Of a stretch of 64,000 bases of DNA, positions 17,991-54,857 are shown one piece after another (the first letter of the stretch is position 1; the number at the start of each line of letters is the position of its first letter). The position numbers and the translations under genes are program-made. The stretch lies in IMG/VR virus record IMGVR_UViG_3300014202_000802; one strand, 5' to 3'. The notes below the pieces were generated by a model. It was not told where the DNA came from, made no database searches, and saw only the letters and a program-made list of their open reading frames with translations. This DNA is from a virus.

Positions 17991-18791
17991 ATGATTAAGC
18001 GTATAACCAGGGCAAATATCATCAAGAAGTACTGGGCATCTGAGGCGGGTGATATCTTCTGTGAGACGAAGGAGCGTACGGGCCGGCTGATGAAATCACC
18101 TGACGGCGGTTACAGGGTGATGATGGAGTACATCCTGCAGAAGAAGATGCATTTTGTGCCGTCGCCGAAGCACAGGCACAGGTACATCAGGTTACGGACT
18201 GTATCGGGTGCGCGTGAAATGGTGCCTGTTCATTTAATAATTATTGAAACTTTTAAGGGAATACGGGGGAAAGGTTACATGCCTGAGTTCAAGGACGGTG
18301 ATCACAACAATTGCAAAGCGGATAATTTGCGCTGGCGGGCTGTTGAATCGGGCTTTTATGATATTCTGACGGATGAGGAATATGTATTATGGGCCGCAAA
18401 GCTGGATTCAATGCCATGCCACCACTGGGAAGGCTTCAATAAACGGGCGCTGGATAAGTTTGAGAAGGCGGCGCTGGGATCGGATAAAGATGAACGTATG
18501 GAATTCTTCCGGAAGTTGTTTGCCATAGATACACCGCCGGTAGGAGAGGGCAGTGTTTTCAGGTTTGATACACTGACTGACCGGCAGAACGAGGTATTAA
18601 GTTTTATTAAAGAGTTTATGGAGCTGAAGGGTTTTGCCCCGACTTATGAGGAAATTGCGGTGAAGTTAAACATCAACCGTATGACTGCGAAGGATCATGT
18701 AGAGCGACTGGTAAAAAAGGGATGTTTAGAATCAGCGCCGGGCACACATAGAGGGCTTACCTTCTTAAATGCAAGGGATACACAAAAATAA
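17991..18791 (+). CDS. Degenerate HNH_3 domain fused to C-terminal LexA-type winged-helix DNA-binding domain
   Basis: 'VHLIIIETF...PEFKDGDHNNCKADNLRW' (first HNH His replaced by Phe); 'LTDRQNEVLSFIKEF..KGFAPTYEEIA......TAKDHVERLVKKG.L.....HRGL'. Confidence 0.85.
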   Translation: MIKRITRANIIKKYWASEAGDIFCETKERTGRLMKSPDGGYRVMMEYILQKKMHFVPSPKHRHRYIRLRTVSGAREMVPVHLIIIETFKGIRGKGYMPEFKDGDHNNCKADNLRWRAVESGFYDILTDEEYVLWAAKLDSMPCHHWEGFNKRALDKFEKAALGSDKDERMEFFRKLFAIDTPPVGEGSVFRFDTLTDRQNEVLSFIKEFMELKGFAPTYEEIAVKLNINRMTAKDHVERLVKKGCLESAPGTHRGLTFLNARDTQK

Positions 18792-18816
18792 AGTGCAAAA
18801 AAACAAATTAAATTTG
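18773..18816 (+). promoter_or_regulatory. Putative late promoter PL1 (GGGATACAC-N25-TAAATTTG)
   Basis: Motif 18775-18783, box 18809-18816; identical spacing at three other sites. Confidence 0.7.
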
Positions 18817-18820
18817 AATT

Positions 18821-19279
18821 ATGGATATTGAGATCACAGAAACCAGTAAGAAGTATAAAATCGATTATTATGATTTCACAAAAGAGATAGGCGGCGTATT
18901 GCTGGGCTACAGGCTTGGCGGCACAAATTGGCAATTGGATCCTGAATACGGGGTCATACAGCTGCCGAATCCATCAACTGACGGTACGATATATGTTTCA
19001 CCCAATGCTTTGAAGCTGCCGTTCCAATTGTTGCGCCGTATTCCTCTGGGTACCTTGATAAAAAAGGTAGGTTCAGGCATGGAGCTTCTTGGTGAGTGGC
19101 ATTCAGACCTGGGTAATATCCGCGGATTGAGTGTAAAGGATCAGGAGGCTATTAACAAACGTATTGAACAGCGGGGGTTTTGGCTTGTAGGAGTAGTAAC
19201 CCGTAAGAATAAAGCAAAGTTAAGGATGGATCTGAATATGTTCCGTGAGAAGTTTGAACGGAGGAAATATAAAAAATGA
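18821..19279 (+). CDS. Hypothetical protein
   Basis: 152-aa ORF starting 4 nt after PL1. Confidence 0.65.
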   Translation: MDIEITETSKKYKIDYYDFTKEIGGVLLGYRLGGTNWQLDPEYGVIQLPNPSTDGTIYVSPNALKLPFQLLRRIPLGTLIKKVGSGMELLGEWHSDLGNIRGLSVKDQEAINKRIEQRGFWLVGVVTRKNKAKLRMDLNMFREKFERRKYKK

Positions 19280-19521
19280 TATCGTACATTATTACACATG
19301 ACAAGAACTTAACAGCGAGAAAATATCTAAAAGACTTAAGGCCACCTATCCGTTATCGCTTAAAGTTGAGAATCTGCAGGTCGTTTTGTGAATATGCTAA
19401 TTTTTATGGCGCGGTCATTACTGAATTGAGGAACGGATTTAAGCCATTGATATTTACATACGATCACGAAAAAAAGAAGTTACAGAGAAGAAGATTATTA
19501 AAAAAATATTTTAAACCATAA
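19276..19521 (+). CDS. Hypothetical basic protein
   Basis: ATGA coupling. Confidence 0.5.
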   Translation: MISYIITHDKNLTARKYLKDLRPPIRYRLKLRICRSFCEYANFYGAVITELRNGFKPLIFTYDHEKKKLQRRRLLKKYFKP

Positions 19522-19527
19522 AACAAA

Positions 19528-19887
19528 ATGGCACATTACGAAAACAAACTTGAAGCTGATGCTGAAAAGGCAAAGCAGAACCTATCGGAAGCATTCAACC
19601 AGGAGGAATCACGGCATTTAGGCAGCGTGAAGATCGATATTTTTATGAAGCCCGACAGGACTACCATGTGCAGCCTTGAAGCGACTGCCGGGGTGAACGA
19701 GAACCCGATGCTGTATATGACTTCTGCTGAGTATTTAATGTATCTTTTCGCAAAGTTCACTCCCGATTACGAAAAAGGGTTACAGGTATTGATGGACGGA
19801 GCGCGTACTTATAAGGCGGTGGAGGTAGAGAAACCGGAAGCAGAAAAGCCAAAACCGAAATCAAAAATAATTTTATTGGGGAATTAA
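19528..19887 (+). CDS. Hypothetical protein
   Basis: 119-aa ORF in operon. Confidence 0.6.
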   Translation: MAHYENKLEADAEKAKQNLSEAFNQEESRHLGSVKIDIFMKPDRTTMCSLEATAGVNENPMLYMTSAEYLMYLFAKFTPDYEKGLQVLMDGARTYKAVEVEKPEAEKPKPKSKIILLGN

Positions 19888-19891
19888 TAAA

Positions 19892-20131
19892 ATGCAGGCT
19901 ATTAACATAATAGTTCAGGTCGCGGATGTAGGTTACGCGGGTGAAGAGCGAACAGAAACAGTAGAGTTCGAAGAAAAAGGTTGTATTTCCGGTTACGATA
20001 TGGATAACGGGCTTGAAGATGTTGCCGTGACTATGACCAAAGATTTGCTGAAAAAATTAGCCTTCAGGGAAAAACAAATAAGCAGAGAAATGCCGTATAA
20101 CATTAAACTTGTGGAGAAATCCAATGACTAA
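19892..20131 (+). CDS. Hypothetical protein
   Basis: 79-aa ORF in operon. Confidence 0.55.
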   Translation: MQAINIIVQVADVGYAGEERTETVEFEEKGCISGYDMDNGLEDVAVTMTKDLLKKLAFREKQISREMPYNIKLVEKSND

Positions 20132-20609
20132 AGAAAAAAAATATCGTTTATTAAAAGATTTACCACAAATTAAAGCAGGGGCTATATTTGAATTAGAGAA
20201 AACCGTAACTGAAGAGGTGTATATTCCAGGGGATTGCTGTATATGGATGATAGGGAATGAAGAAAGGCGGGCGTATAATCCTAAATTCAATGCTGAAGAA
20301 ATGCCTTATCTTGTGAGAGAAGGATGGTTTGAGGAAGTTGAAGAAAAAGACTTTAATTCAAATAAACAAATCAGAATGTTTTGCGAAGATTACAGAAAAA
20401 TAGCCTGTAATCAAACGGTGATTCATATTCAACCGGAGCTATTAGATTCGATTGTTAACACAATTCAGGAGCGTACGAGGGCTAATGAGAGATCCATGCT
20501 GTACACAGAAAATAATATGAAAGACTTTGCAGAATATTGCCGTAATCAAGGTTTCGTTACAAGAGACCTGCCAAAAATGCTTCTCAATTGGAGGGAAAGC
20601 CATGCCTGA
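20124..20609 (+). CDS. Hypothetical protein
   Basis: ORF; ATG 20124 follows GGAGA. Confidence 0.6.
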   Translation: MTKEKKYRLLKDLPQIKAGAIFELEKTVTEEVYIPGDCCIWMIGNEERRAYNPKFNAEEMPYLVREGWFEEVEEKDFNSNKQIRMFCEDYRKIACNQTVIHIQPELLDSIVNTIQERTRANERSMLYTENNMKDFAEYCRNQGFVTRDLPKMLLNWRESHA

Positions 20610-20970
20610 ATTCAATGAAAAAGCAGTACAGAAGATGTACGGCTGGGAAAACAAAACAACCCAGGAGCTTTATAATACCGAAGAACATGAAGTTTCAACT
20701 CTTGACATCAAGCCGATGGGTAACAGGATACTCATAAGAGAAGATGAGAAGAAAGATACAACTGCAGGCGGTATTATTATTCCTGATACCGTGAGAGCTG
20801 ATGAGCACAAAGGAACGGTATTGGCTGTAGGCCCGAAGTGTGTGGACTTAAAAGCCGGTATGCGTGTATATTTTAATAAAGCGGCACGGTATCCGTTGGT
20901 TTATAACGGTGAAACTGTTTTACTGATGAAAGAGGGCGATGTTTATTCGGTGATCGGGGAGGAAGATTAA
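20602..20970 (+). CDS. groES: Phage-encoded GroES (Cpn10) co-chaperonin with N-terminal extension
   Basis: 'IKPMGNRILIRE....TTAGGIIIPD......GTVLAVGP....LKAGMRVYF...' with intact mobile loop. Confidence 0.9.
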   Translation: MPEFNEKAVQKMYGWENKTTQELYNTEEHEVSTLDIKPMGNRILIREDEKKDTTAGGIIIPDTVRADEHKGTVLAVGPKCVDLKAGMRVYFNKAARYPLVYNGETVLLMKEGDVYSVIGEED

Positions 20971-21282
20971 AAATGGAATATGAACAAAAATATTTACCGA
21001 AAGCACGCACATTTAAAAAAGGATACAAAAAGAATCTTAATCCTTTAAAGTTTATGTTAAAAGTGATTGTCACAGCGCTTGCGTTGATAATTTTAAGAGT
21101 GCTGACTATATGACAATTTACCAAAAGAAATTAAGAAAAAGATTATCGAAGCGGCAGCGCAGGGGCGGGTTGATGGCTTTTGTTAAAAGGCATAAAGGCG
21201 GTCCGGTTAAGTATGATAATGATCCTTGGGATAAAAAATATATCGAGGAATTTTTTCCAGAATTAAAAATAACTAAGGTGCT

Positions 21283-21930
21283 TTGACGATAGATAAAGCG
21301 AAAATATTACAGCAGGTGGTGGACGGCAAGAAGACTGTGAAGAAAAAGAAGAAGTCCAAAAAGAAAAAGCCGCAGCCATTAAACATACAGCAGCGGAAAT
21401 TCATAGCTGAGTATGTGAAGCTGGCCGCATCAGGTAAACCTAACGGTAAGCAGGCGGCAATTAATGCCGGTTACAGTGAAAAAACTGCTGAAACGCAGGC
21501 ATCCCGGTTGTTAAGTTATGAAAAGGTAAGCGCGGAAATAGATAAAGCTATCGTGAAGGTTGAGAAGCAGCTGATGATCGAGTCAGAGGATCTTGCGCGT
21601 GAGATGTATAATCATGTTTATTTCGATATTTCGGACATAATGGAGATAACAGCGAAGGGTGATCTTTTATTCAAAGGCAAATCATTGAAGGATATTCCCG
21701 AGGATCTGCGCAGGTGTATTCAGCAGATTGAACCATTGAAGGACTTGGGCTATAAGATAAAGTTTGTTGACCGGCAGGCTGCCTTGAAAATGCTTGCGAA
21801 CTGGCGCAATATGTTCATAAGGAAAAAAGAAGTAAGCGTGAACATGAATGTTCGCTCGATCCAGGAGCTTGTAATGCGTGTAGCAAAGGAATCGCCGGTT
21901 AGCAAAGAAGTATTGGTACGGATGGAATGA
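21283..21930 (+). CDS. terS: Terminase small subunit
   Basis: 'QQRKFIAEY...NGKQAAINAGYSEKTAETQASRLLSYEKV'; directly upstream of terL. Confidence 0.9.
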   Translation: MTIDKAKILQQVVDGKKTVKKKKKSKKKKPQPLNIQQRKFIAEYVKLAASGKPNGKQAAINAGYSEKTAETQASRLLSYEKVSAEIDKAIVKVEKQLMIESEDLAREMYNHVYFDISDIMEITAKGDLLFKGKSLKDIPEDLRRCIQQIEPLKDLGYKIKFVDRQAALKMLANWRNMFIRKKEVSVNMNVRSIQELVMRVAKESPVSKEVLVRME

Positions 21931-23528
21931 TGACTGACACCAATGATTTAGTACAGCAATTCAGGATGCCTTCATTTGAGGAATTGCGGTTTACGGCCGA
22001 ATCACTGCGTAATCCGTTATACTTTATCGAAGAGGTACTGGGTATTAATACCCTTACAGACGATCAGAAAAGGATAGTTAAAAGCGTATGGATGCATAAA
22101 TACACTGCGGTTCAGGCTTCATACGATGTAGGGAAAACATTCATAGCGGCTTGTATTTCGCTTGCGTATCTTGTTCCAAATCCCGGTACAACGATCATAA
22201 CAACAGCGCCGACAAAAGACCAGGTTGAAAATCTGTTATGGAAAGAGATATCACAGCTTGTAGCCAATTCTAAAATGCCCATTTATGATGAAAGATTAGG
22301 CGGCAGGCTTAACCAGACTGAATTTACACTGGGTGAAAAGTGGTTTGCAGTTGGTATTTCCGTGCAGGTGGGGAAGGAAGAACAGTCCGCGGTAAAGATC
22401 TCGGGTTATCATAATCCGCAAATTCTGGATATAATCGATGAAGCAAGCGGTGTACATTCAGCTATATGGAAAGCAATGAAGGGGCATATGGCCTCGGATA
22501 ACAGCCGTATGCTTGCGATCAGTAACCCGCGTACAAATAATTGCGAGTTCAAGGTGTTCTGTGATGATGTTAAAACAAATACGATCCATATAAATGCGCT
22601 GCAGCATCCGAATATTGTAAACAAACGCAATGTTATCCCGGGCGCAATTTCACTTGACTGGGTTCAGGAGATGGTTGATAAGCACTGCGATGAAGTAAAA
22701 ATGCATAACGAAGAGGACCGTACATTTGAATGGGACGGCAAAATATATAAACCCGACAATGAAGCTATATGGGAATTATGCGGCCACTTCCCGAAGCTGA
22801 CTGATGAGTTAATGTTCGGTATGCTTTTACAGAAAATACACGGTTTTGATGCAATGCCCGATACTCCGATGCGCTCACTTGGCGCGATCGATTATGGTAA
22901 CTGGGCTATGGCGTATGTTGGCAAGCAGGATAACCGCGGCAGGATATGGACTGATAAGGAATGGTGCGATAATGATGCTAATAAATCACTGACCGATAAA
23001 GCGATAAGTTTCCGGAACTGGTGCAAGGCAAATAATGTACGGGATATGGTATTTGTGGGTGACAGCGATATGTTTGCAATGCCGGCCAAGGCGTATAATG
23101 AAAAGAACCGTAAAAACAGGGTTATTGATACATTCAGGAAAGAGTGCGAGGGGCTTAACCTGACATTTGTACCGGTGATAAAAGGCAAAACCGAAAAGGT
23201 TGATTACAGAATATACTGCAATACAGTTTTAAGGAACGGTTTCAGTTATAAGAAAAACGATGAAGGTTTATGGATCAGAGAACCTAAGCTCAGGGTTTCG
23301 AAGGACTGTACATGGTTCTGGAAATCAGTGCCAAAGTTAAAGCGTTCATTGCTGATTGAGGGCGATTTCGATCAGGACGGTACAGATTCAGACGGCAGGG
23401 TGATACCCGATCACCCGGTAGATGCGTATAAAATCTGTGTAACTTCATTCAGTGAACCGATAGACCAGCTGATGAAACGCGCTGCGCTTGATGAGATGCG
23501 TAAAATGGCAGTGGAGATGATGGGATGA
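21927..23528 (+). CDS. terL: Terminase large subunit
   Basis: Variant Walker A 'ASYDVGKT', 'TTAPTKDQV', Walker B 'IIDEASGV', 'ISNP', nuclease 'AIDYG' and 'DHPVDA'. Confidence 0.88.
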   Translation: MMTDTNDLVQQFRMPSFEELRFTAESLRNPLYFIEEVLGINTLTDDQKRIVKSVWMHKYTAVQASYDVGKTFIAACISLAYLVPNPGTTIITTAPTKDQVENLLWKEISQLVANSKMPIYDERLGGRLNQTEFTLGEKWFAVGISVQVGKEEQSAVKISGYHNPQILDIIDEASGVHSAIWKAMKGHMASDNSRMLAISNPRTNNCEFKVFCDDVKTNTIHINALQHPNIVNKRNVIPGAISLDWVQEMVDKHCDEVKMHNEEDRTFEWDGKIYKPDNEAIWELCGHFPKLTDELMFGMLLQKIHGFDAMPDTPMRSLGAIDYGNWAMAYVGKQDNRGRIWTDKEWCDNDANKSLTDKAISFRNWCKANNVRDMVFVGDSDMFAMPAKAYNEKNRKNRVIDTFRKECEGLNLTFVPVIKGKTEKVDYRIYCNTVLRNGFSYKKNDEGLWIREPKLRVSKDCTWFWKSVPKLKRSLLIEGDFDQDGTDSDGRVIPDHPVDAYKICVTSFSEPIDQLMKRAALDEMRKMAVEMMG

Positions 23529-23677
23529 TAACATACAAAGAAATAAAAGATTTAATCACTTACAACTGGGTAGCGGATTTTACATCATTTTACTGTTACC
23601 ACGGAGACAGGTTAGAAAATCTAACCTGTCAAACAATTTGGAATCTTTATTTAGGAAGCAGGCATAGATTAAATTGA
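23525..23677 (+). CDS. 50-aa hypothetical protein containing a perfect 10-bp hairpin
   Basis: Hand translation MITYKEIKDLITYNWVADFTSFYCYHGDRLENLTCQTIWNLYLGSRHRLN; coupled at both ends. Confidence 0.4.
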   Translation: MITYKEIKDLITYNWVADFTSFYCYHGDRLENLTCQTIWNLYLGSRHRLN

Positions 23678-23925
23678 CTTTATCGGATGAAGAACGAAAT
23701 CAACAGTTAAAGATTATACAAGAGATTGCCGAAAAACTTGGCAGTCATTTTGATTCAATCCAGATCGTAGCAACCTTTGATATGGGTAATTCAGGCACAA
23801 GTATTTTTAATTGGGGAAAAGGTAACTGGTTTGCAAGATACGGGTCAGTAAAGGCATGGATACAGAATGAGGAAAATGCAGGGGTTTTTACGGATAAAGA
23901 TGCTGATAACGAAGAAGAGGAATAA
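23674..23925 (+). CDS. Hypothetical protein
   Basis: 83-aa ORF. Confidence 0.55.
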   Translation: MTLSDEERNQQLKIIQEIAEKLGSHFDSIQIVATFDMGNSGTSIFNWGKGNWFARYGSVKAWIQNEENAGVFTDKDADNEEEE

Positions 23926-23953
23926 CATTTCAGAAATCAGAAGGAGTAAGAAA

Positions 23954-24202
23954 ATGAAACACGAAGAAAGAGTAATAAACCCGGGAATGGCGGTATTACT
24001 GATGGCATACTACGCTTTACCGGATTTAAAACATCACGGCAATTCGGCGGAATTCAGTAAACTGGTTGATTTAGGGTTGATACAAGTTGACACAGCACCC
24101 GGCAAGTTAACAGAAAAAGGCGAGGCATATATTGAAATGATGCTTGCTACTCCGATACCGGTTGAGAAACGTATATATGTTCGTCCGGAGGAAAAGCTTT
24201 AG
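23954..24202 (+). CDS. Hypothetical protein (wHTH-like)
   Basis: ATG 23954 after AAGGAG. Confidence 0.55.
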   Translation: MKHEERVINPGMAVLLMAYYALPDLKHHGNSAEFSKLVDLGLIQVDTAPGKLTEKGEAYIEMMLATPIPVEKRIYVRPEEKL

Positions 24203-24244
24203 GGGATACACAAAACCCGTATGAACACCGGTTAGCTATTTTTG
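24200..24244 (+). promoter_or_regulatory. Putative late promoter PL2 (GGGGATACAC-N25-TATTTTTG) before portal
   Basis: Motif ends 24211; box 24237-24244; portal ATG 4 nt later. Confidence 0.7.
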
Positions 24245-24248
24245 TACA

Positions 24249-26435
24249 ATGGCTAATTATGTGCATAAAATCGATATTGACTGCCGTTACATAACTGAAA
24301 AGAATGTACGGGATAATAATATCCAGGAGTGGTTAAAGGAGCGTTATGAAGACTGGATAATGAAGGGCGAAATGCTGATGCAGGATTCTGCGATGCATGA
24401 TATCTGGCGGACAAATGCATATTATTACGAAGGCTTTCAGGTCCCGATCGGTTTCACTAACTCACCCATACTTGAATTTATCAATAAAAACGAAGCAAAT
24501 GATGACGGCACGGTAGTTGACGGGCAGGTTATACCCGCGGTTGTTGATACAAGGCGTTTCCGTGTAAAGAAGAATAAATTCGGCAAGCTGTTCTATGTTG
24601 AGAATAAGATCACTGAGATTATCGACGGTCATATATCCGAATACACTTCAGGAGAAAAGGTTATCCAGGTTAAAAATGATGATGACCCGACCAACGACAG
24701 GATGGAAACTGCTACGCAGCACTGGCTTACAGCTATGCAAAAGCGGCTGCAATTCTGGAGTGATTACTTTATTCCAATGGCCGAGAAGAAGGAAAAGTAT
24801 GGTTTATCATGGCTGAATACATGGTATGACCCGTATGTGAATATCGCTAAATACGGTGAGATCGGTATGGAAGTTATTAATCCCTGGGATATGCTGATAT
24901 GGGCGGAAGCCGGGGATAAGTATTTCCTTAATACAACACCGTTCATAATCCACAAAAAGCATTTGCCGATAGAAGAGGCGCGGGAACTGCTTGAACAGTT
25001 TGATATAAAGCCTGAAGATGTGATAGCAGATCAGGATTATTATTACCGCGGCAGGACCGTAAATCGTGAGAACAAGATCATACAGGAAGAATACGTAACC
25101 CTTTATTACATTGAATACCGCAAAAAGTATGTAGATGCAGTGCCGTTGAGTGAGTTTGAGATAACCGAAGGCGGCAAAGATATGCTGAAAGAACAGCGGA
25201 CTTATTACTTTGAATCACTTTACAACAGGAGCTTAGGCACGGTTTATCATAAGATCAACCAGTACGCTGATCCAAGGATGTACAACAAATGGCAGTTTAA
25301 ACGTACTCCATGCTGCGACAAGCCGAGTGAACTGAGGGCGTTCCCTATAAGCAAGGTTGAGAAACTGATCAATGTGCAGGATATAATCAATGTTCTTTCA
25401 TCGCTTATCATCAATAATGCGCGTTTTTCCGATATGGTACGGGGATTTGTGCTTAAGCAGCTGAAGGACGATTACCCCGCGGAGTTCAAAGATTGGGTTG
25501 AAACAGGCGGTTTGATGCCGATAGACAACATCGAAGATATTAACAAAGCGGTTAAGTTCTTTGACTGGCCGGGGACATCACCTGAAATAGCGGGATTCCT
25601 TGATATCGCCAAGACGACTATGAAGAACCAGGGTATCCGCCATGAAGTATTGACAGGTGAATTACCTGAAGGTCCGATGGGCGGTAAGAGGGAAGTATCC
25701 GGCAAAGCTATACAGCGCTTACAGGCTGCAAATGCTGTGAGGCTTACTCCCGATGCCACAAATGTTGAATGGACAGTAACGCAGGTTACGAATCTGCTTT
25801 ATAAAATGGCTGCTGTTGAGTTTACCCATGAGGCATGGGCGGCTATTGAGAATGCAAGGAAAGGCGACCCGCAGTACATCCCTATAAATGCCACAATGAG
25901 CATAAAGGAATACGATGCAATGCTCTTCAAGATGTACCCGGATTTAGATCCACTGAGCGCAAACAAGCGGTTCCAGGAGCATAATATGGTTAAGGTTGAT
26001 TATGCGCTGAAGGATCAGGAAACAGGCCGGATACTTGAAGAAGAAGAGGTAATGGGCCAGTATTCCGAGGTACGTGTGAATCATTTAAAAGACCGTTCAG
26101 GCGAGATATTCCTTTTTAATATTACGGTTACGATAGATTTTGACTTCGAAAAGAATAAGATGGAAGAGAAGCAGATCATAGCGCAGTTGTTTGCGGCCGG
26201 TAAGTTCCCGCTGGATATGTTCCTTGAAACCCAAGGCGGTACGTTACAGGCGCAGAAGGATGAGATCGTGAGAAAATTACGCGAGGAGCAGAATTCAAAG
26301 TATGCACTTGCACTGGCGGCCGAGGTTGAGAAACGCGGTCCGGAGTTCGCACAGCTTGTAATGACAATGGCGGCTGAGCATGATAAGTCACAGCAAATGA
26401 AAGAAAAACAAACAAAAGGAGCGGAGGCAGCGTAA
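24249..26435 (+). CDS. Portal protein (P22-like podovirus type)
   Basis: 728 aa, between terL and scaffold, helical C-terminal barrel-like tail; size and position fit. Confidence 0.8.
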   Translation: MANYVHKIDIDCRYITEKNVRDNNIQEWLKERYEDWIMKGEMLMQDSAMHDIWRTNAYYYEGFQVPIGFTNSPILEFINKNEANDDGTVVDGQVIPAVVDTRRFRVKKNKFGKLFYVENKITEIIDGHISEYTSGEKVIQVKNDDDPTNDRMETATQHWLTAMQKRLQFWSDYFIPMAEKKEKYGLSWLNTWYDPYVNIAKYGEIGMEVINPWDMLIWAEAGDKYFLNTTPFIIHKKHLPIEEARELLEQFDIKPEDVIADQDYYYRGRTVNRENKIIQEEYVTLYYIEYRKKYVDAVPLSEFEITEGGKDMLKEQRTYYFESLYNRSLGTVYHKINQYADPRMYNKWQFKRTPCCDKPSELRAFPISKVEKLINVQDIINVLSSLIINNARFSDMVRGFVLKQLKDDYPAEFKDWVETGGLMPIDNIEDINKAVKFFDWPGTSPEIAGFLDIAKTTMKNQGIRHEVLTGELPEGPMGGKREVSGKAIQRLQAANAVRLTPDATNVEWTVTQVTNLLYKMAAVEFTHEAWAAIENARKGDPQYIPINATMSIKEYDAMLFKMYPDLDPLSANKRFQEHNMVKVDYALKDQETGRILEEEEVMGQYSEVRVNHLKDRSGEIFLFNITVTIDFDFEKNKMEEKQIIAQLFAAGKFPLDMFLETQGGTLQAQKDEIVRKLREEQNSKYALALAAEVEKRGPEFAQLVMTMAAEHDKSQQMKEKQTKGAEAA

Positions 26436-26713
26436 TGCCTAACTATCACCATAAACCCGAAGAAATCAAATGTAAGAATTGTGCATCTATCGAATTTAAA
26501 TCAGTAGATGTGGGAAAGATTCAATGTGAATATTGCGGTACATCTTACTTATTTTCGGGACCAACAAGAATGTTGATAAAACAATCCTTAGCGGATCGCT
26601 ACGATGCAAGTGTTTTAAGTAAATTCCTGACAGAAGGCGGGATGTTACCCGTAGAAAGCATGGACGACATACAGATATTCTTGCCGGGGTTAGTTGAAGT
26701 TCCCGCACAATAG
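26435..26713 (+). CDS. Small Zn-ribbon protein
   Basis: 'CKNCAS...QCEYCGT'. Confidence 0.6.
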   Translation: MPNYHHKPEEIKCKNCASIEFKSVDVGKIQCEYCGTSYLFSGPTRMLIKQSLADRYDASVLSKFLTEGGMLPVESMDDIQIFLPGLVEVPAQ

Positions 26714-26756
26714 GGGGATACACTTTCAGCAGTTTTTAAGGTGCAGTTTATATTTG
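26711..26756 (+). promoter_or_regulatory. Putative late promoter PL3 (GGGGATACAC-N25-TATATTTG) before scaffold/capsid
   Basis: Motif ends 26723; box 26749-26756. Confidence 0.7.
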
Positions 26757-26782
26757 TTGTAAATAAACAAAAAAAATTAAAA

Positions 26783-36734: not shown

Positions 36735-37301
36735 TTATTTTTTATATTTTTTAACGATTTCAATGATAATGGCTAATAAAATACCAACAAAGGAGTAAAT
36801 AACAATAAAATTAATAAGATTTACGTATGTGCCAAATATAAAGATTAAGATACCATAACCGAAAATGACAGCAAAGAAAATGAAAATAATAAATATAATA
36901 AAAAGAATACCGAAAAAAACGATGGTTAAATCACGCAATATGGGTAAAATCCAGTCAATTATTTTTTTGCGTTTAGATTTTAGATATTCAAAAATTCTCA
37001 GAACAATACCGGATATTATAATGATGCCATAAATAATTAAACCATTCGTGAATAAAGACGAGCTACCGGAAAAAGATTCAATAATGGAATAAAAAAATAA
37101 AAACCAAAAAATGCCAAATGCAAGTAAGGTAAAATATAAAAACATAGGCAAAATTACATCAACAATCGTGTCGGCAAAGTCATGCAATATTCTTAGTAGT
37201 GATTTTCTTTTGTGATTTAGTAAGCCAAGAAGTGCAAGACAAGCAGATGCAATCAAAGCGTAAACTAAAGCATTAATGATTGCTGAAGAAGAAAACTTCA
37301 C
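36735..37301 (-). CDS. Moron: five-helix membrane protein
   Basis: Very hydrophobic, AT-rich, antisense to the structural operon. Confidence 0.7.
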   Translation of the reverse strand: MKFSSSAIINALVYALIASACLALLGLLNHKRKSLLRILHDFADTIVDVILPMFLYFTLLAFGIFWFLFFYSIIESFSGSSSLFTNGLIIYGIIIISGIVLRIFEYLKSKRKKIIDWILPILRDLTIVFFGILFIIFIIFIFFAVIFGYGILIFIFGTYVNLINFIVIYSFVGILLAIIIEIVKKYKK

Positions 37302-37308
37302 TGTTCTT

Positions 37309-37734
37309 TTAATTTATGAAAAATCGTCTCATTTCAGAGCGGTATTGCGGGTAAGTCTGGTTAGCAAAATCCATTGGTAAGATAAGCCAATAAACAGATA
37401 ATGGCGTAGGGTCTGTTACAATCCATGTATTAACAACGGTGTCATTCAGTATGTTAGTAGGGGATGCGTAAATATTGATATTTGAATCAAGTTTTTCGTA
37501 ATAACCCCATCTAAAAGCAAGGGAACGAGACCAGGTAAAACGAATAGTATCACCGACATAAAAATGAGCATCATTAGCGGGAGAATAGAGTTTGATAACG
37601 GAATCCTGAAAAGTTGGAGGGTCATTTTGACCGGGGTTATTCGGGCTTACAGGATCATCAGAACAACCAAGTAAAAAGTAAAAAGGCAAAAGTAAAAAAA
37701 GTGCGAATACAAAGAGTTTTATAGAGTTTTTCAT
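37309..37734 (-). CDS. Moron: lipoprotein
   Basis: Signal with lipobox 'LLG-C', then 'SDDPVSPNN'. Confidence 0.75.
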   Translation of the reverse strand: MKNSIKLFVFALFLLLPFYFLLGCSDDPVSPNNPGQNDPPTFQDSVIKLYSPANDAHFYVGDTIRFTWSRSLAFRWGYYEKLDSNINIYASPTNILNDTVVNTWIVTDPTPLSVYWLILPMDFANQTYPQYRSEMRRFFIN

Positions 37735-41762: not shown

Positions 41763-41975
41763 TCAGATATTTTTATACGGAGATTGGATTTTGCGGGCAG
41801 GGTAAGCATCATAAGTGTACATGGTTTTTTCAGGGTACTCTGAGCCATTGTAAACATACTCAGGGTTATAAATGCCGGCAGGTTTTGCCGTAGTGTTAAA
41901 ATAAAGCAGCGCTAAATTGAAAAGCAGGAAAGCGATAGTTACGGGTATAATGAAATGTTTCTTTAAGAAGTTCAT
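41763..41975 (-). CDS. Moron: small single-pass membrane protein
   Basis: N-terminal TM helix; own TTGACT-type promoter at about 42000-42028. Confidence 0.55.
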   Translation of the reverse strand: MNFLKKHFIIPVTIAFLLFNLALLYFNTTAKPAGIYNPEYVYNGSEYPEKTMYTYDAYPARKIQSPYKNI

Positions 41976-42047
41976 AATAAATTATGATTTAATTATATAA
42001 AGTTACTGTATAAATACAAAAAAGTCAATAAGCATAAATACTCAAAA

Positions 42048-42800
42048 ATGAAAAAGTTCCTAAATATACTCAAATTCGTAATATTTTATCCGTGGTTTCC
42101 ACTGGATCAATTGAATATTGGTCCCTTAGCCATCGCCGGTATAGGTGCGGGCATAGGCGCTCTTGGTAATATGCTGGGTGAGAGCGAAGAAGAGAAGCGC
42201 AATCAAATGCTGAAAAAGAAGATGGAAGCGCTCAATGCCATGCGTGAACGTTTTAAACAGCAGGCGGCCGAGGACAGGAAATCAAGCAGCCGAATGTATT
42301 CAGGAATGATAGGTGAGCGCAGGGGTAATTTGAATCAGAAACTCGCACAGTACGGGATGAATCCTTCGGGGAGTGTGTATTCAAACGAAAAGGATCTGAT
42401 CGATGCTAATTTGCAGGAACGTGAGAATATTGATAAGCAGCAGAAGGAAATGGAATCGCAGATATCATACCAGATAGATAATATTAATTCAGAAATGGTT
42501 GACGAACCTTCAATGTTTGAGAAGGGTTTAAGCGGCGGGATATCGGGATTCAAACAGGGATTAAATCTTTCAAGTGTTTTACCCGGGGTGAATTCACCGG
42601 GCGGTTCTGCAACAAAGCCTATAACAAAACCTGTTACAAGCGGTATCAATACAGGGAATATTAACCAGGGAGTTACTAATCCGGACATGATAGATCCGAC
42701 GATACTTCCTGATGTTGGCGGTGAGGACGGCACGGGGCAAATGGGCAACCTGACCCCGCAGCAATTGCGGAAACTTTTAAAAATGCGTTTATACGGATAG
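42048..42800 (+). CDS. Ejection/pilot protein 1 (P22 gp7-like) with hydrophobic leader
   Basis: 'PLAIAGIGAGIGALGNMLG' glycine zipper, coiled coil, low-complexity tail. Confidence 0.65.
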   Translation: MKKFLNILKFVIFYPWFPLDQLNIGPLAIAGIGAGIGALGNMLGESEEEKRNQMLKKKMEALNAMRERFKQQAAEDRKSSSRMYSGMIGERRGNLNQKLAQYGMNPSGSVYSNEKDLIDANLQERENIDKQQKEMESQISYQIDNINSEMVDEPSMFEKGLSGGISGFKQGLNLSSVLPGVNSPGGSATKPITKPVTSGINTGNINQGVTNPDMIDPTILPDVGGEDGTGQMGNLTPQQLRKLLKMRLYG

Positions 42801-42809
42801 GGGGATAAA

Positions 42810-50200: not shown

Positions 50201-53200
50201 AACCGCGTATATATCAACGAGGACAGGGCGGGATTAGATACCCCGATACATGAATTCGGTCATATCTGGTTAAGGTGGGCTGAATTATTTAAGCCGGTTC
50301 TTTACAGCGAAGGACTGAGGCTTGCCGCTAAGGATGAAGCATTAATAAAAGAGATCAAGCTGAAATATCCCGAATATGAAGATGGTTCAGTTGAGCAGAT
50401 GGAAGAAGTCCTTGCTACTGCTATTGGCAGGAACGGCATCGGTATGTATGAGGGAATGGCTGAGCGCGAGAAGCTGACAGAAGGCTTTGTGGACTGGTTA
50501 AAGCGGTTATGGAATAAAATCAAAGAAGCGATCGGTGCGGTGCAGGGTATGACTTTGCGCGGGTTCACAGAGAATGCGGCTAAGGATATGCTTTCCGGCA
50601 GGGAGATAACTGATGCAACGAGCCTTGAACTTGAAACCATGTGGCAGTCACGGAATCTGGGTTTACAGAAGTTTCAAAAAGGTGAAACAAAGCAAACGGA
50701 GTTAATTACAAGGATTGAAGATGCACTGAATCGCTGGGATAATGGCGAGTTCACTGATCAAGATGTGATTGAAGAAACTGCTACAGCGCTGGATATTGAG
50801 GTATCTGACGGTATTGAGGGAGTTGCTGAGCTTGAAAGTGAGATCAGGGAATATCAGTCTGAATTACGCGAAGATTTTGAAGAAGATGGCGGCAGGGGCG
50901 ATTCCGGTACTACCGCTGAGAAGCTTGTTACAAAAATACAGGAATTTGTAAGTAAGGATGGTAAAAATAAAAACGAAGTAGTTAAAAAAAATAATCTGAT
51001 CTTTGAGGATGGGAAAAGAATTGATTTAGAGGATATAATACCTGATGATGCAATGGATATTTTCAACCAAAGATTTTGGGGATTATCCGGTGTTAAAGTG
51101 CCCAAGAAAATGTATGGAAAAACTAAATTTAAAGACTTTGTTGATTTCATTGAAAGCTATGGAATTGGTGATGATGTATTTTTAGAATCAACAATTGCCT
51201 TGCGGAAATTAGGTTATCGTGAATTAGGCGATATGTTATTAACCGCTAAAGGTATGAAACTTAAAGAAACTAAGGCACTTCCTGAAGGGAAATTTACAAA
51301 TGATATACGGTTCCATAAATCCGCGATACCCGAAACAAGCCTTTATGTCAGGAAAAACGGAACGTTGAGCAATAAAGTATTTGATGCGAACACTGCAAAA
51401 CTCATAAGAGTGGGCGCGAGTGTCATTCAGGATAATGGATTAACCGACAGTAAAAAGGAAATAATCGAAGAATTCGGCAAGCTGATAAACGGGTTATTCA
51501 CCAATGCGCGGAAACCTTTTGCATTGAACAATGAGCAGATGGTTAAGCTCTACGATGCCTCAATGAAATTTCTAAACGAAAAGATCACCGAAAGGCAGCA
51601 GAAACAAAAAGCAGCTGAACGTTCTGATTCAAAAATAAGGGCATTACTTGGTGAAGATGATAATTTCAAAGACAGAACGGTTTATGATGCCACAATGAAT
51701 ATCGGCGGCAAGATACTTGACCTTGTAACGCTCAGAGGGGCAGATAATTTTTTTAAAAAGTTTATAGGTGATACAATATGGGAAGAAGAGAAAAAACTTT
51801 TTATGAGTATCCCGTGGATGAAGCGAGCATTCGATCAGTTTGGTTTTGTGCCGGACAGTGAGCAGTTCCGTGCATTATGGCGCGAGATGTCAAGGGGCGC
51901 GAGCCATTACAGCCAGATAGCTAAAGAGATGGCTGATTCACTTTACTTCAGGGATTTAAAGCGTAAACATCCGTATTTATTCATCGAGCAGCAGTTACTT
52001 GCAAGGATGATAAAGGGCGAAACCCCGGTAAACGGTAAGATCACGATTCAGCCCACAGTAAAGAACGGACTGCAGGCCCCGCTTGTGCTGGATATGACCG
52101 AGCTGAAGGAACGCGCTGAGCGTGTTCGAAAACTTCAGGATGAGATGAAAAAACTTGGAGAGCTTTACGAGGTTCTGCCGGTTGAAACCTACAACACAAA
52201 ATTACCGCGTAAACGTATTGCATGGCTACTGAACTTCAAGGCGGATCTTGAAAAGATGCTTGAAAAAGGCGAGGGCAAAATAAAATGGCAGGACAGCAAG
52301 GGGAATAGTACTGATCTTGTTTTCAAGTCACCGGAGGCCATACAGGAACGCATAGAGAGCACTGACAAACAGGTTAAGAATTCATTCAAACGAGGCGGCG
52401 AGGGATATTTCAAAAGGGTTTATTTAACCAAAGAGCAGGAACGTTTAACCAAAAAATACGGAATCACAAAACCGACAAGGCTCGACCTGACGGCGGCTAT
52501 TCACAGGGAAGATATCGATCTTGCGGACAGGGTTAAGATGGGCGAGATACTGACGGCGGCTTATCCCGTGGCTAAATCAATTTTACTTACAGGCAAGGAT
52601 ATATCGATAGGCGGATTTTTTGAAGGGATCGCGGAGAATCCGGCTTGGGCGAGTGATGTTACGGCCGAGGGCTGGATAAAAGCAGGTGACAATAAGAAGC
52701 TGGGTAAACTTGCTAATATGTGGGTACATCCCGAGGTATGGGATATTGTGAACGAAACGGTTGAAATAAACAGCACTGATTATGCGGATAAGTTTATGCG
52801 GCAATTAACAGGTATGTGGAAGCAGACTAAGGTTGTGATGAATCCACCGACAGTTATGCGTAACTTTTACACAAACAGTATTATGCTTGATTACAGCGGG
52901 GTAAACCCGGTTCATCAAATGCGGCTGTTACCGCAGGCGCTTGATGAAATAAGAGGCAAGGGTAAGTATTCCCGTGAAATGGATTACATCAGGGGGTCAA
53001 CATTTGTGACGGCTGAAATGGAGAAGTTTCTGGATGAGTTCAAAGTCTATGACAGCAAGCAGCAGGCACAGGACCGGTGGAAGAGTTTACCGACGGGTGA
53101 AAAGTTCCTGAAGGTGATGAGTAAAGCCACTCTTGCGGGCACCAAGGTTGGAATGAAGGCTGCGGACTTTTATAAATTCGCCGAGGTATTATTCAAAACC

Positions 53201-54829
53201 GTAAAGTTCCTGCACGGCAAAGAAAAGGGCATGACCAATACAGAGGCTATTGATGAAGCGCAGAAATGGCTTTATGATTACGAGGATATCCCGAAATGGG
53301 TACGGAGTATGCGGCAGAGCTGGTGGGGTATGCCGTTTGCAACATGGAGTTACAAGACCATGCCGCGTGTGATCGAAGCAGCGGTAACAAGGCCACTGAC
53401 TTTCGCGAAGTATTATTTTATAATCAAAGGGGTGATGGAGTACGCGCTTTCGCAGCTGAGCATATCGCCGGAGGAATGGGAAGAGATATACGCTAATTTA
53501 CCTGATAGAATGAGGCAGGGACAGTGGCTGCTTCTTCCGTACAGGGATGATAACGGCAATTTACAGACGCTTGACCTGACTTATATAATGCCTTTCAGCG
53601 ATCTTTATAAAATGGGTTTAACCGCTGTTACTCTTGCGACAACAGGCGAAACCGCAACAGGTGATGATGTTCTGACTTCACTTGCTACACTGATGGGTAA
53701 TCCCGTATTCACCATGAGCGCCGAGATAGGCGCAAATATAAGCCGGTACACCAAGCGGCCTATCTGGAAAGAAACGGACACACCCGGGGTAAGGATGCAG
53801 AAAACCTTTGATTACATGTATAAATTATGGCTGCCAAGCTGGTATCCTGAAGTACCGGGCATGACACGGGGCGGGTATGTTTACGATAAATTAAGATCCG
53901 CAATAACCAAGCGGCCGGATTATTACGGCAGGGTATCGGATATAATGCCTGCGCTCTTCAGTACAGCGGGTTTGAAAATAACCCCGGTTGATGTTGGCAA
54001 GAACATAGATGATAAAATTAAGCGTAACACTGCAAATATCCTTGAGCTGCAGAAGGATAAGCAGATGGTTCTGAGGGACCAGTCAATAACCCGTGAGGAA
54101 CGTGTAAGGAAAACTGACGAGATCGACAACCGGATAAGGTTATTAACGGAAGAAAACACGGAACATGAAACCCGCCAGGAGCCAAAAACAATGGCAGAGC
54201 AGCTTATGGATAAGTATATCAGGGGGCTTGAACGGCAGAAATCAGAGGAAGAGGATGACGATAAAAAGCAGAAATTGCAGAAAGAGATCAATAATCTGAA
54301 AATTGACCTTGACCTGCTGCGTGATTACAGGTACAGCGAGAATCAGCCCGGGTTTGATGAAGTGAAGCAGGATGTATTCAGAACCAAGGTGAACTATACC
54401 AAGCTGTTTGACGGGCTTAACAGGCAGTTAAAAGAGGCTATCCGTGAAAAGGACGATATAAAAACAGGGGAACTGAAGAAATTTATCGAGGATCTTTCCG
54501 GTGAGCAAGATGCTCCGAAACAGGGGCGTGATATGGCCGTGGAAAAGATAAAGCGCTGGGACGGGGAAATGGGCTTTTTGCGAAGCGTTGAGGACTTGAA
54601 TGATAAATACCGCGAATACGGGCTGAAACAGCCTAATGGCAAAGATTACAGGTATAAACTTTCAGATACGGAGCAGAAAAATTTAAAGATCGATAATGTT
54701 CGCTGGCGCAGGCTGCTCAGGGACCGCAAGAACGATCTGCGTGAACAGCGCCGGAAGGGTAAAATTGATCACAGTATGATGCTTGAGCAGATGGAATCGA
54801 TCGATAAACTCTTAGGGGATACACAGTAA
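44261..54829 (+). CDS. Giant polyvalent ejection protein (3522 aa): Gly/Ala-rich helices, ParB-like domain, Strawberry-notch-type SF2 helicase, HExxH zincin-like domain, helical C-terminus
   Basis: 'PPIQV...LLAGHSR' (about 47000); Walker A 'DGTGVGKT' (48431); 'YDEAH'; 'TATP'; 'QVLGRISR'; 'PIHEFGH' (50249). Confidence 0.85.
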   Translation: MAVLDKYKSLTRESLLKDKDDKKRQKVRERLLQDKIKAVEDFNKIHLEFILPNVFKVGEGIEALKEKERKDLTTEPTKKVESLAKTGELPGVVLKNRFQETADRLAGEEMLEREKETATQQFRQRSTIGKLFDRDKETSGTGDGMDYRYGFQNQPSGDYPGVNLVTKEDIEKQKSGEEQISAIMNKNIAEKLKKNVNDYFGKFGIKKEDIESTAKKHKVTYDIAGQIAYEESKKKEIPGIGEIFQDITSGKVKDGFNKFSNAFNVMTKDFNSSLAMFGSSIIQGITYAGDKDNPISWINPLGKVTQYLTDLGMEKIGLDVEGNNIETKKYLAEVRDKVNKWASDIGSQEEYQEYISRPYMQGAGSMVGFILTTALSRGLNLTHGSAASIFGALSTAGSMAYDTEKQTGDIDKAYLSFLAGLPLGATERFGIGKLFGDIDAMTGGSIKTIFKIAGREALEEFIQEGGQTFGEATFQNYITGSKRDALREAMENALIAAPLAFLFAGGTGVGMRTGVKVFNSIKDRIKKEKPKTDAPVYTPATEKIISAVKEKLKTEKPKVTKKPETVEKVEIEGVDEAISDLGLTKVKDENKGSQKTVEVTKEDVDKLKTSLVNIATTGEGVSLEGITKARELADKSKDLFTTEQSKEIAEFIDGLNKKLKEKPKTLTEQQAENQEFLTKNKEKAGKTIDEIYPEETGISAKDLTDDELKSEHRDYENRLDKLDEKQGKMPDKEFERYLDLQGEMITRGFVKTKETEKPKTLITQAEQDEIDQIEAFPENTAEGLNKKIAFAEKMLDPDRIKNLRQLDPKDADKVVKNWTGKLDQYKRKLESLKPENTEKVTDKTGVKSTEGFVEVELTAITKDLKNYQGRQGEEYSDQTFNRIVNEHKEGKLIRSAIPPIQVFVRENGKMELLAGHSRLAAWQELAKSNKDFKTIPTQFLRESEGVTFEQAQKIAQESNQGAVQKDTDNAVYFRKLRGKLKPAELRKQAENLYGKNAAYVTELSYLSPKGKTFTMLVSLNKSEDKAQQNRVSDIASWVGNIRRLFETEISDKHENEMFDWLMRENNYKGIKNKTDFRDKVKTIVERYDFNRNEPLNLPEDQLLSNAEKEYRRKVASLETEIKEAKAREKEENRNLVKRKVDKKDITNDDINRMIQPMRDSIIQLEEELIELKKQEGKYKEAGEGEIGLFGPATPPKKEGFAEGQSKINQVKDEIDDIEAEIIKKLGKLKTGYDPELALLTGKLVTKYVQLGFYKLEALTREFIRKGMEKLLPYLREAYVKLRTDDSLSPAIINSLDDEQTTNRFDPERFNSSLSEAERESIQGGSPVPRTDRGESGAGRPALRYANQRNLPDAGQRVPVGKYEVDEHQRYGINLALDRFLDNLGRGFGLFDGTGVGKTRQELVIAKEIKKAKPDLPVLIITDSNRVVKKNFTPEARQLNIALTDFEIGTYSDLRAGKIGKAPKYGLVVYDEAHNLKNAGTGKTEAARDIKADHILFGTATPMDRIVSALYFLHELSDVDMKLLAEKIGVNISYQQDMFGKAEIPIIEPKEGVSEKQVIANVIGLRNKAIENGAMIRREYPFFGKVERMEVQMTSEDIERQDTISEYWQNRIKKVWKRGDLTKAEKIQKAMNIGGIRKAELEALTESGKAKAVFAKIEKDLAEGRSVIVATDLVESTTINSIGLDVMSALDQIKEMLDEAGVKYGELYGGEAKRNLKGINDFNDGSVKVLLMTQKTGGVGINLDDTKGDAPRSMYILSPSHSGDVFQQVLGRISRRNTLTESMVHLVFMPQAVRDQARRNIVERKLRTLHAIQEGEDMDEQTVETTRQDVRFQKSGKPIQIRFQLDFGANRITILKALKSEEARLKEMLVTTPFELGDSRYSRLQKKVGETQAEIKRLEQEIAGMKPIENELGDDQLSMFQHEGYTRATKDYLYALSKKLNEAFPGIEVVMQSTEEMLETLKGIGYYFTTESVPFGFKGPDNRVYINEDRAGLDTPIHEFGHIWLRWAELFKPVLYSEGLRLAAKDEALIKEIKLKYPEYEDGSVEQMEEVLATAIGRNGIGMYEGMAEREKLTEGFVDWLKRLWNKIKEAIGAVQGMTLRGFTENAAKDMLSGREITDATSLELETMWQSRNLGLQKFQKGETKQTELITRIEDALNRWDNGEFTDQDVIEETATALDIEVSDGIEGVAELESEIREYQSELREDFEEDGGRGDSGTTAEKLVTKIQEFVSKDGKNKNEVVKKNNLIFEDGKRIDLEDIIPDDAMDIFNQRFWGLSGVKVPKKMYGKTKFKDFVDFIESYGIGDDVFLESTIALRKLGYRELGDMLLTAKGMKLKETKALPEGKFTNDIRFHKSAIPETSLYVRKNGTLSNKVFDANTAKLIRVGASVIQDNGLTDSKKEIIEEFGKLINGLFTNARKPFALNNEQMVKLYDASMKFLNEKITERQQKQKAAERSDSKIRALLGEDDNFKDRTVYDATMNIGGKILDLVTLRGADNFFKKFIGDTIWEEEKKLFMSIPWMKRAFDQFGFVPDSEQFRALWREMSRGASHYSQIAKEMADSLYFRDLKRKHPYLFIEQQLLARMIKGETPVNGKITIQPTVKNGLQAPLVLDMTELKERAERVRKLQDEMKKLGELYEVLPVETYNTKLPRKRIAWLLNFKADLEKMLEKGEGKIKWQDSKGNSTDLVFKSPEAIQERIESTDKQVKNSFKRGGEGYFKRVYLTKEQERLTKKYGITKPTRLDLTAAIHREDIDLADRVKMGEILTAAYPVAKSILLTGKDISIGGFFEGIAENPAWASDVTAEGWIKAGDNKKLGKLANMWVHPEVWDIVNETVEINSTDYADKFMRQLTGMWKQTKVVMNPPTVMRNFYTNSIMLDYSGVNPVHQMRLLPQALDEIRGKGKYSREMDYIRGSTFVTAEMEKFLDEFKVYDSKQQAQDRWKSLPTGEKFLKVMSKATLAGTKVGMKAADFYKFAEVLFKTVKFLHGKEKGMTNTEAIDEAQKWLYDYEDIPKWVRSMRQSWWGMPFATWSYKTMPRVIEAAVTRPLTFAKYYFIIKGVMEYALSQLSISPEEWEEIYANLPDRMRQGQWLLLPYRDDNGNLQTLDLTYIMPFSDLYKMGLTAVTLATTGETATGDDVLTSLATLMGNPVFTMSAEIGANISRYTKRPIWKETDTPGVRMQKTFDYMYKLWLPSWYPEVPGMTRGGYVYDKLRSAITKRPDYYGRVSDIMPALFSTAGLKITPVDVGKNIDDKIKRNTANILELQKDKQMVLRDQSITREERVRKTDEIDNRIRLLTEENTEHETRQEPKTMAEQLMDKYIRGLERQKSEEEDDDKKQKLQKEINNLKIDLDLLRDYRYSENQPGFDEVKQDVFRTKVNYTKLFDGLNRQLKEAIREKDDIKTGELKKFIEDLSGEQDAPKQGRDMAVEKIKRWDGEMGFLRSVEDLNDKYREYGLKQPNGKDYRYKLSDTEQKNLKIDNVRWRRLLRDRKNDLREQRRKGKIDHSMMLEQMESIDKLLGDTQ

Positions 54830-54857
54830 AGAGGTTGTTTTTTATAAATTATATTTG
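54813..54857 (+). promoter_or_regulatory. Putative late promoter PL4 (GGGGATACAC-N25-TATATTTG)
   Basis: Motif ends 54824; box 54850-54857. Confidence 0.7.

Follow-up and report, generated by a model that had tools for sequence, protein, structure and literature searches.

A phage-private box at a fixed distance from the Bacteroidota -7 element precedes four predicted late units of a prophage

To our knowledge, the way in which phages of the Bacteroidota, the dominant gut phylum, time the expression of their late genes is almost unknown. The DNA analysed here, IMG/VR virus record IMGVR_UViG_3300014202_000802 in its whole length of 64,000 nucleotides (nt), is called the window below. It is almost entirely one prophage of a Bacteroidota bacterium, that is, a temperate phage, with an S24-type repressor at the left end, an integrase and an endolysin at the right end, and nearly all of its genes on the + strand. 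Four copies of one short box, GGGATACAC, stand in this prophage, each exactly 25 nt upstream of a TAnnTTTG sequence and each ahead of a block of predicted late genes, which raises the question of what these sites are and what reads them. We consider it likely that they are late promoters, used by the host sigma-A through the -7 box together with a phage-specific factor placed at about -46 to -38. Together they would then form a late regulon whose four sites have defined positions in this phage and counterparts in corresponding places in five or more relatives.

The four sites and the genes that follow them

The eight elements lie as follows, with lengths of proteins given in amino acids (aa).

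18775 to 18783, + strand: upstream box 1 (GGGATACAC), overlapping the last codons of gene 17991-18791
18809 to 18816, + strand: -7 box 1 (TAAATTTG), with an ATG at 18821
24203 to 24211, + strand: upstream box 2 (GGGATACAC), abutting the stop codon of gene 23867-24202
24237 to 24244, + strand: -7 box 2 (TATTTTTG), with the portal ATG at 24249
26715 to 26723, + strand: upstream box 3 (GGGATACAC), right after the stop codon of gene 26435-26713
26749 to 26756, + strand: -7 box 3 (TATATTTG), then about 22 nt, rich in A, before the ATG at 26783
54816 to 54824, + strand: upstream box 4 (GGGATACAC), overlapping the last codons of the 3522-aa gene that ends at 54829
54850 to 54857, + strand: -7 box 4 (TATATTTG), with an ATG at 54865, 7 nt downstream

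The word GGGATACAC occurs four times in the 64-kb window, on the + strand only, where 0.22 copies are expected, and none of 100 shuffles reached four. The composite GGGATACAC-N25-TAnnTTTG has four matches, which are the same four places (0.00 expected). Since the -7 box alone is common (85 copies of TAnnTTTG in the window, compared to 67 expected), the signal consists of the upstream box and its rigid spacing. Compared pairwise, the four sites agree at 95% of the positions in the box and at 88% in the -7 box, with 31% for the spacer and 23-30% for the flanks. The box measures 9-10 bp, (G)GGGATACAC, and is asymmetric, and all four -7 boxes match the stricter form TAHHTTTG, with no G at either variable position. 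The sites fill stop-to-start gaps of 29, 46, 70 and 35 nt (sites 1 to 4) on the coding strand.

An earlier note on this DNA had placed the ends of the box at 18783, 24211, 26723 and 54824, with TAnnTTTG exactly 25 nt after each of them and a spacer that is not conserved. The positions proved exact, all four on the + strand; the distance was found in 4 of 4 cases with none expected, and the identity values agree with the description of the spacer. A scan of both strands with spacing enrichment found no copy of GGGATACAC without its 25-nt -7 box. Moreover, all -7 boxes on both strands were examined for a copy of the 9-mer located 20-30 nt upstream, with as many as three mismatches allowed, and no further credible site appeared. 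The one-mismatch copies of GGGATACAC on the + strand (n=11) all lie inside open reading frames (ORFs), and none of them has a -7 box.

Each site is followed by a predicted late unit:

18821 to 24202, + strand: predicted late unit 1, with a Prok-JAB-like gene, small genes, a GroES-like gene, the small and large terminase genes and two small genes
24249 to 26713, + strand: predicted late unit 2, with the portal gene (homologues carry PF16510) and a 92-aa gene
26783 to 54829, + strand: predicted late unit 3, with a scaffold-like gene, the SU10/crAss-type major capsid gene, virion genes and the gene for the 3522-aa protein
54865 to 62215, + strand: predicted late unit 4, with small genes, the gene for a 684-aa propeller-like protein and the endolysin gene (61373-62215)

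The four sites had also been described as preceding every late module. This holds for terminase, portal, scaffold/capsid and lysis, while the label 'fibre' that had been given to the fourth block could not be confirmed.

In Flavobacterium johnsoniae, the -7 element runs from T-12 to G-5 and the transcript begins 4-5 nt downstream of it; 87% of the mRNAs have leaders exceeding 10 nt, and in Bacteroidota promoters at large the -33 element is weak (PMC6847099). The identification of TAnnTTTG as the Bacteroidota -7 box was borne out by a perfect match to this element at all four sites (PMC6847099). Since the published geometry sets T-12 to G-5, the box would lie at about -46 to -38, with its centre at about -42, if the G is -5 and the start site is as assumed. 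At sites 1 and 2, the distance from the G of the -7 box to the A of an ATG is exactly 5 nt, and therefore leaderless transcripts are predicted there, with that A as the start; the predicted leader is about 3 nt at site 4 and A-rich and about 22 nt at site 3.

None of the four spacers has a -33 TTTG or TTG 19-21 nt upstream of the -7 box. Note that promoters of the canonical form, TTG/TTTG-N20, do occur in the window, at 591 and 34811. A generic search for promoters and terminators of the E. coli type gave no useful information in this phylum. The idea that the box replaces the -33/-35 element is thus half right: the -33 TTTG is missing, but the box lies further upstream than -33 and not in its place. 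Because the -33 element is weak across the Bacteroidota, its lack alone is no proof that these promoters depend on an activator.

Private boxes and a shared layout in relatives

The collections searched contained no close relatives. Megablast of positions 18000-30000 against the phage collection gave no match, a word-index search recovered a single portal homologue, and searches for related loci with the window portal, with P0004 or P0012 and with a terminase alignment (against genomes) returned nothing. An exhaustive profile-free portal search identified about 40 relatives at 30-39% portal identity. The DNA around several of them was fetched and compared; these loci are referred to by L numbers.

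In the closest relative (L183, portal 39% identical), AAAAACTAACGACAAA-N22-TAnnTTTG stands before the portal gene and again after it, ahead of the next gene. A scan for this box elsewhere gave no viral match and five genomic singletons without phage homology, which is chance level. L196 carries TTACCGCCCCCGA-N24/25-TAAnTTTG three times, L194, from scaffold_324 of ENA ERZ23499452, carries ATC(A/T)TTCCAAA-N26-TATnTTTG three times, and L192 has a 19-nt box at N18 twice. The sites of L194 and L196 precede the JAB-like gene, the portal and the scaffold-like gene, with the gene order of the window, and each of the relatives' boxes is confined to its promoter sites and to the coding strand. Conservation in relatives, which the earlier note had named as decisive for its proposal, was therefore found for one part of it: the architecture recurs at the same syntenic places, but the exact word does not, as each phage has its own box.

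These boxes were also assessed without choosing a word beforehand, by comparing the 8-mers shared at the same offset upstream of the -7 boxes with those of 1000 randomly placed sets. No set of the 1000 did as well in the case of the window, L194, L196 or L198, and 3 of 1000 did for L183; L184, L185, L186 and L216 had no common 8-mer in this test. L184 and L185 probably infect hosts of other phyla, judging from their few -7 boxes and from the Shine-Dalgarno-like sequences of L184.

L198 was found solely through its homologue of gene 17991-18791, the gene that ends in box 1. Its boxes stand directly downstream of that gene, ahead of the portal and ahead of the scaffold-like gene, as had been predicted. 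L198 and L194 are closer to each other (78% portal identity), and their boxes agree both in sequence and in the three locations. In the three pairs of orthologous promoters from these two phages, the box is identical at 33 of 33 positions and the -7 box at 92%, compared to 49% in the spacer and 36-46% in the flanks. This footprint therefore points to selection on two separate elements and on their distance, not to a duplicated cassette.

A further relative, G001, is a complete IMG/VR genome with terminal repeats (68,731 bp; loci L199 and L207-L210). Its synteny with the window extends from the JAB-like gene up to the giant protein, with 51% identity in the terminase and 29% in the portal, and it has exactly four GGTTCCAAA-N25-TAnnTT(T/A)(G/A) sites at the window's four syntenic positions:

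G001 site 1: before the JAB-like gene
G001 site 2: between terminase and portal
G001 site 3: before the scaffold-like gene
G001 site 4: 26 nt past the stop codon of the 4537-aa giant gene

Four of the eight coding-strand copies of TTCCAAA in G001 have a -7 box of this form at N25 (binomial P 7e-10), compared to none of the seven copies on the other strand. At its site 1, the ATG comes 5 nt after the -7 box, and the portal frame has a GTG 4 nt after it. Since G001 has its four sites at the syntenic positions of the window, the four-site layout is ancestral to the lineage.

What could read the box

The gene context and the conserved syntenic architecture support the proposal of the earlier note that these sites form a late-promoter regulon combining a host -7 box with a phage-specific upstream site. 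The mechanism that we propose would run as follows. The host RNA polymerase with its primary sigma factor (sigma-ABfr) would read the -7 box, TA(A/T)(A/T)TTTG. A DNA-binding factor with sequence specificity, encoded by the phage and expressed late in the early/middle operon, would bind the box and, from its position at about -42, recruit or stabilise the polymerase, supplying the upstream contact that is missing. The four units (pre-terminase/terminase, portal, capsid to giant protein, and the distal block with lysis) would be switched on together, and the transcripts of units 1 and 2 would begin on the A of the ATG. Late timing, and activation as opposed to another form of control, are what we infer here. 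Because each related phage has its own box, factor and box would form a private pair in each phage, and because the box differs among phages that share the layout, a host factor is unlikely to be what reads it.

One gene stands out as the possible source of this factor:

17991 to 18791, + strand: candidate for a late activator or specificity factor; the final gene ahead of site 1, ending within box 1

Its N-terminal part is NUMOD4/HNH_3-like, with a Pfam HNH_3 score of 22.6, under the cut-off of 24.8, and, against the HNH_3/NUMOD4 clusters of the atlas, a feature score of 0.92 and a structural template modelling (TM) score of 0.47-0.49. The middle is a conserved helical domain of about 60 aa, and the C-terminus is a LexA-type winged helix (Pfam LexA_DNA_bind, E 1e-15). 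Its PHROG matches are to HNH or repressor PHROGs. The AlphaFold model of the protein, with a predicted local distance difference test (pLDDT) value of 50 and of less than 50 in the NUMOD4/HNH_3-like part, is too poor for a fold search. A search with this protein alone recovered nothing except itself. Homologues of about 190 aa without the winged helix were found directly 5' of the first box in L194, L196, L198 and G001, the one in G001 being remote (hhalign E 5e-5, BLASTP 1e-7). Their invariant residues fall mainly in the helical domain. In the alignment of three members, the column presumed to hold the first catalytic His has Phe in the window, Tyr in L196 and His in L194, and the HNH_3-like domain is apparently inactive in the two of these three that lack the His.

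The profile of this family matches only loci that have the promoter architecture, and not L184 or L185, which lack it. Among the five phages whose region upstream of the first box is covered (the window, L194, L196, L198 and G001), it is the only pre-late gene common to all besides the JAB-like gene, and the neighbouring early genes are mosaic around it. It keeps one syntenic position in these five phages, whose portals are 29-41% identical, and so does not behave as the sporadic, mobile homing endonucleases do. The product of gene 17991-18791 is the strongest candidate for the factor that reads the box, at a probability that we put somewhat below even. Sigma, MotA, AsiA and Mor/C families were looked for with Pfam among the early proteins of the window, and none was found. 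A 75-aa ORF of L196 was considered as a split-off winged helix and was ruled out, as it has no similarity to it.

Several points weigh against our interpretation of the four sites as activator-dependent late promoters. With the -33 element weak in the phylum generally, these promoters could be constitutive. The predicted leaderless starts are unusual, since 87% of the F. johnsoniae mRNAs have leaders, as do most mRNAs in Bacteroidota. The box is asymmetric and in this is unlike the dyad sites of Mu C, CRP and P2 Ogr. Outside the window, the exact word is present, among the matches listed, only as chance singletons: GGGATACAC-N25-TAnnTTTG has 62 single occurrences in IMG/VR and at least 120 in GTDB genomes, and we take these as chance because no contig among those matches has two such sites. 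Two relatives have no shared box: L186, with just one strict -7 box in its gaps, and L216, with canonical -33/-7 promoters instead. For the candidate gene, the LexA-type winged helix is found solely in the window's copy. Finally, its co-variation with the box is ambiguous, as G001 and L194 share the core TTCCAAA and their proteins align only in the C-terminal helical domain.

A different reader of the box would be a phage factor that is sigma-like or appropriates sigma, taking the place of sigma region 4 or remodelling it in the manner of MotA/AsiA in T4, instead of a classical activator next to an intact holoenzyme. Such a factor would account for the lack of a -33 element in every spacer and for the privacy of the boxes, and an asymmetric, directional box is like the elements that sigma factors or MotA read. 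There is also a sub-threshold Sigma70_r4 match in the C-terminal domain of gene 17991-18791, but the LexA match is stronger, and the domain concerned is missing from the relatives. Moreover, 25 nt to the -7 box is too far for a contact by region 4, where the usual spacer is 16-21 nt; the placement differs from that of the MotA box, centred at -30; and Pfam recognised no sigma, MotA or AsiA family member among the early proteins. We therefore regard a sigma-like factor as unlikely.

That the promoters are constitutive and of host type, with the box serving as an operator for negative or other control, for example by a repressor that silences the late genes of the lysogen, or as a site unrelated to transcription, seems to us quite improbable. 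Promoters of Bacteroidota can be defined by the -7 box on its own, with a -33 element that is weak genome-wide (PMC6847099), and a temperate phage, with its S24-type repressor and integrase, must silence its late genes. However, -46 to -38 is an ill-suited place for repression, which usually takes place over the core promoter or the start site. GGGATACAC is present nowhere outside the four late sites, so it is unlike any operator near the repressor gene, and the spacing, held to within one nucleotide in divergent phages, points to a face-specific contact made with the polymerase.

It is no more credible that the sites are duplicated promoter cassettes spread by recombination, comparable to the promoter stem-loops of T4-type phages, in which the box would be hitch-hiking or UP-like within a single strong promoter and have no dedicated factor. 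The four perfect copies without degenerate forms would fit this, as would the location of the sites at module junctions and the mosaic early genes and conserved late genes of L194 and L198. Duplication would have copied the spacer as well, however, and spacers are 31% identical within the window's phage; between the orthologous promoters of L194 and L198, spacer identity is 49%, compared to 100% for the boxes. In addition, boxes such as CCGCCCCCGA do not resemble A/T-rich UP elements. The last alternative, that the box is a signal in RNA, guiding the processing, antitermination or translation of read-through transcripts, can draw on its position at the 3' end of the upstream gene, which puts it within read-through mRNA, and on start codons very near the -7 box, but is very improbable given that RNA folding of the four regions found no shared or significant structure (z -0.8 to +0.8, with folds that differ), that the box has no complementarity to downstream sequence, and that a fixed distance to a DNA promoter element is unexpected for an RNA signal.

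Returning to activator-dependent late promoters, a more specific picture can be drawn tentatively. The window would belong to a podovirus-like lineage of Bacteroidota phages with private activator-box pairs, comprising temperate and virulent phages with a P22-type portal, an SU10/crAss-type capsid and a giant internal protein. These phages would employ an activator from a new family, descended from a NUMOD4/HNH_3 homing-endonuclease fold and no longer catalytic, which acts from an asymmetric box at about -42 on promoters that lack the -33 element and are partly leaderless. In all its parts together, this picture is possible but rather doubtful.

Known systems, implications and neighbouring genes

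Late promoters that depend on an activator are textbook biology, as in Mu C, P2 Ogr, T4 MotA and Ltr/RinA. At T4 middle promoters, the MotA box, centred at -30, replaces the upstream element and the host sigma still reads the downstream one. As there, a phage-specific box stands in for a missing upstream element in the window; unlike there, its centre is at about -42, and Pfam found no MotA/AsiA homologues. P2/P4 have four late operons, each with an Ogr/Delta site, a dyad TGT-N12-ACA near -55 from which a zinc-finger activator contacts alpha. The window likewise has four late units, each preceded by a conserved site, but its box is asymmetric and at about -42 whereas the Ogr/Delta site is a dyad near -55.

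A parallel in geometry is Mu, which has late promoters, four in number (Plys, PI, PP and Pmom), with a -10 and without a -35 element, and a C site centred at -43.5 (PMC2582627). The window resembles it in the number of late promoters, in having the downstream sigma element and missing the upstream one, and in the position of the site (about -42 with the start assumed here, -43.5 in Mu). It differs in that the Mu site is a 16-bp imperfect dyad to which a dimeric helix-turn-helix protein from the Mor/C family binds, whereas the boxes described here are asymmetric, with lengths of 9-13 bp, and are paired with the Bacteroidota -7 box as their downstream element. No Mor/C-like protein was found by Pfam.

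In gene order, the candidate recalls the Ltr activators (RinA, ArpU, LtrC, DUF1492) of Gram-positive siphoviruses. The Ltr gene is the last of the early cluster, and its product binds upstream of terS with a specificity that depends on the phage (PMC3753634; PMC3152322). Similarly, gene 17991-18791 ends at box 1, and its homologues stand upstream of the first box in L194, L196, L198 and G001. Unlike the window, with its four dispersed sites, the Ltr phages have one late promoter, before terS; their activators are small basic proteins and not NUMOD4/HNH_3-like as the candidate is, and their hosts belong to a different phylum. The candidate had no match to the RinA, ArpU, LtrC or DUF1492 families in Pfam or PHROG.

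In the literature searches for the GGGATACAC word or for late promoters of Bacteroides prophages, nothing was found, and the sole related description of a Bacteroidota phage was the tripartite motif of the crAss-like phage phi14:2. This motif is located upstream of middle and late genes, including the portal, in phi14:2 and its genus VI relatives, and is used by the host polymerase; it has both sigma-type blocks, and the E. coli holoenzyme alone transcribes it in vitro (10.1101/2020.03.07.982082). Both cases concern a Bacteroidota phage with an extended, phage-typical promoter motif before the portal and late genes. The phi14:2 motif is genus-wide, however, whereas the box described here is private to each phage and comes without an upstream sigma element. 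Compared to the canonical sigma-ABfr promoter (-33 TTTG and -7 TAnnTTTG), the four sites match the -7 box perfectly, but have no -33 TTTG at 19-21 nt and carry instead a conserved, non-host box further upstream.

If our interpretation is right, the window would hold a phage-encoded late-gene switch of a sort not yet described for Bacteroidota phages. It comes with defined predictions of where transcription begins, including two leaderless starts of a kind unusual in Bacteroidota, and with a named candidate regulator family that has no annotated function. The private boxes would imply factor-site pairs that co-evolve. Because each phage has a different box, these pairs could, if true, provide mutually orthogonal, inducible activator-promoter parts for the engineering of Bacteroides and its relatives, and they could also mark late modules in the many gut phage contigs that lack annotation.

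Some genes of the late units deserve separate mention. The Prok-JAB-like gene (18821-19279) is kept in every relative, including L184 and L185, and late unit 1 also contains a GroES-like (Cpn10) gene at 20527-20970 that has a homologue in G001. The large terminase of G001 (L199 7273-9918) has 881 aa compared to 533 aa in the window; its extra segment ends in a motif like an intein C-terminal splice junction, and is possibly an intein or an inserted endonuclease. The capsid gene (28320-29681) was assigned to the SU10/crAss type by the atlas (feature score 0.98, TM about 0.7), so that a capsid of this type coexists with a portal of the P22 family. A PDB sequence search with the capsid protein gave no meaningful match, and its AlphaFold model (pLDDT 42) is too poor for a fold search. 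Neither Pfam nor PHROGs recognised the scaffold-like gene, the capsid gene or most of the tail genes.

Inside the late region, a canonical promoter, TTTG-N20-TATATTTG, is located at 34778-34825. The ATG 4 nt downstream of this promoter (34811) is out of frame with ORF 34756-35271 and opens a frame of 40 codons only. Late unit 3 is broken up by two minus-strand genes at 36735-37734, and a homologue of one of them (37309-37734) is found at the same place in L194 and L196. The 1004-aa gene that comes after this pair would rely on read-through from site 3, since no + strand -7 box was found before it.

Among the relatives, a tRNA suspected by eye in L216 received no confirmation from ARAGORN. L184 has a gene of the IS605 OrfB/TnpB type (8861-9934) inserted directly 5' of the portal. 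In L192, two big N6_Mtase/Eco57I-type genes (3764-9521; 1035 and 843 aa) lie between the portal and the scaffold-like gene, and its second box-bearing promoter is located after them.

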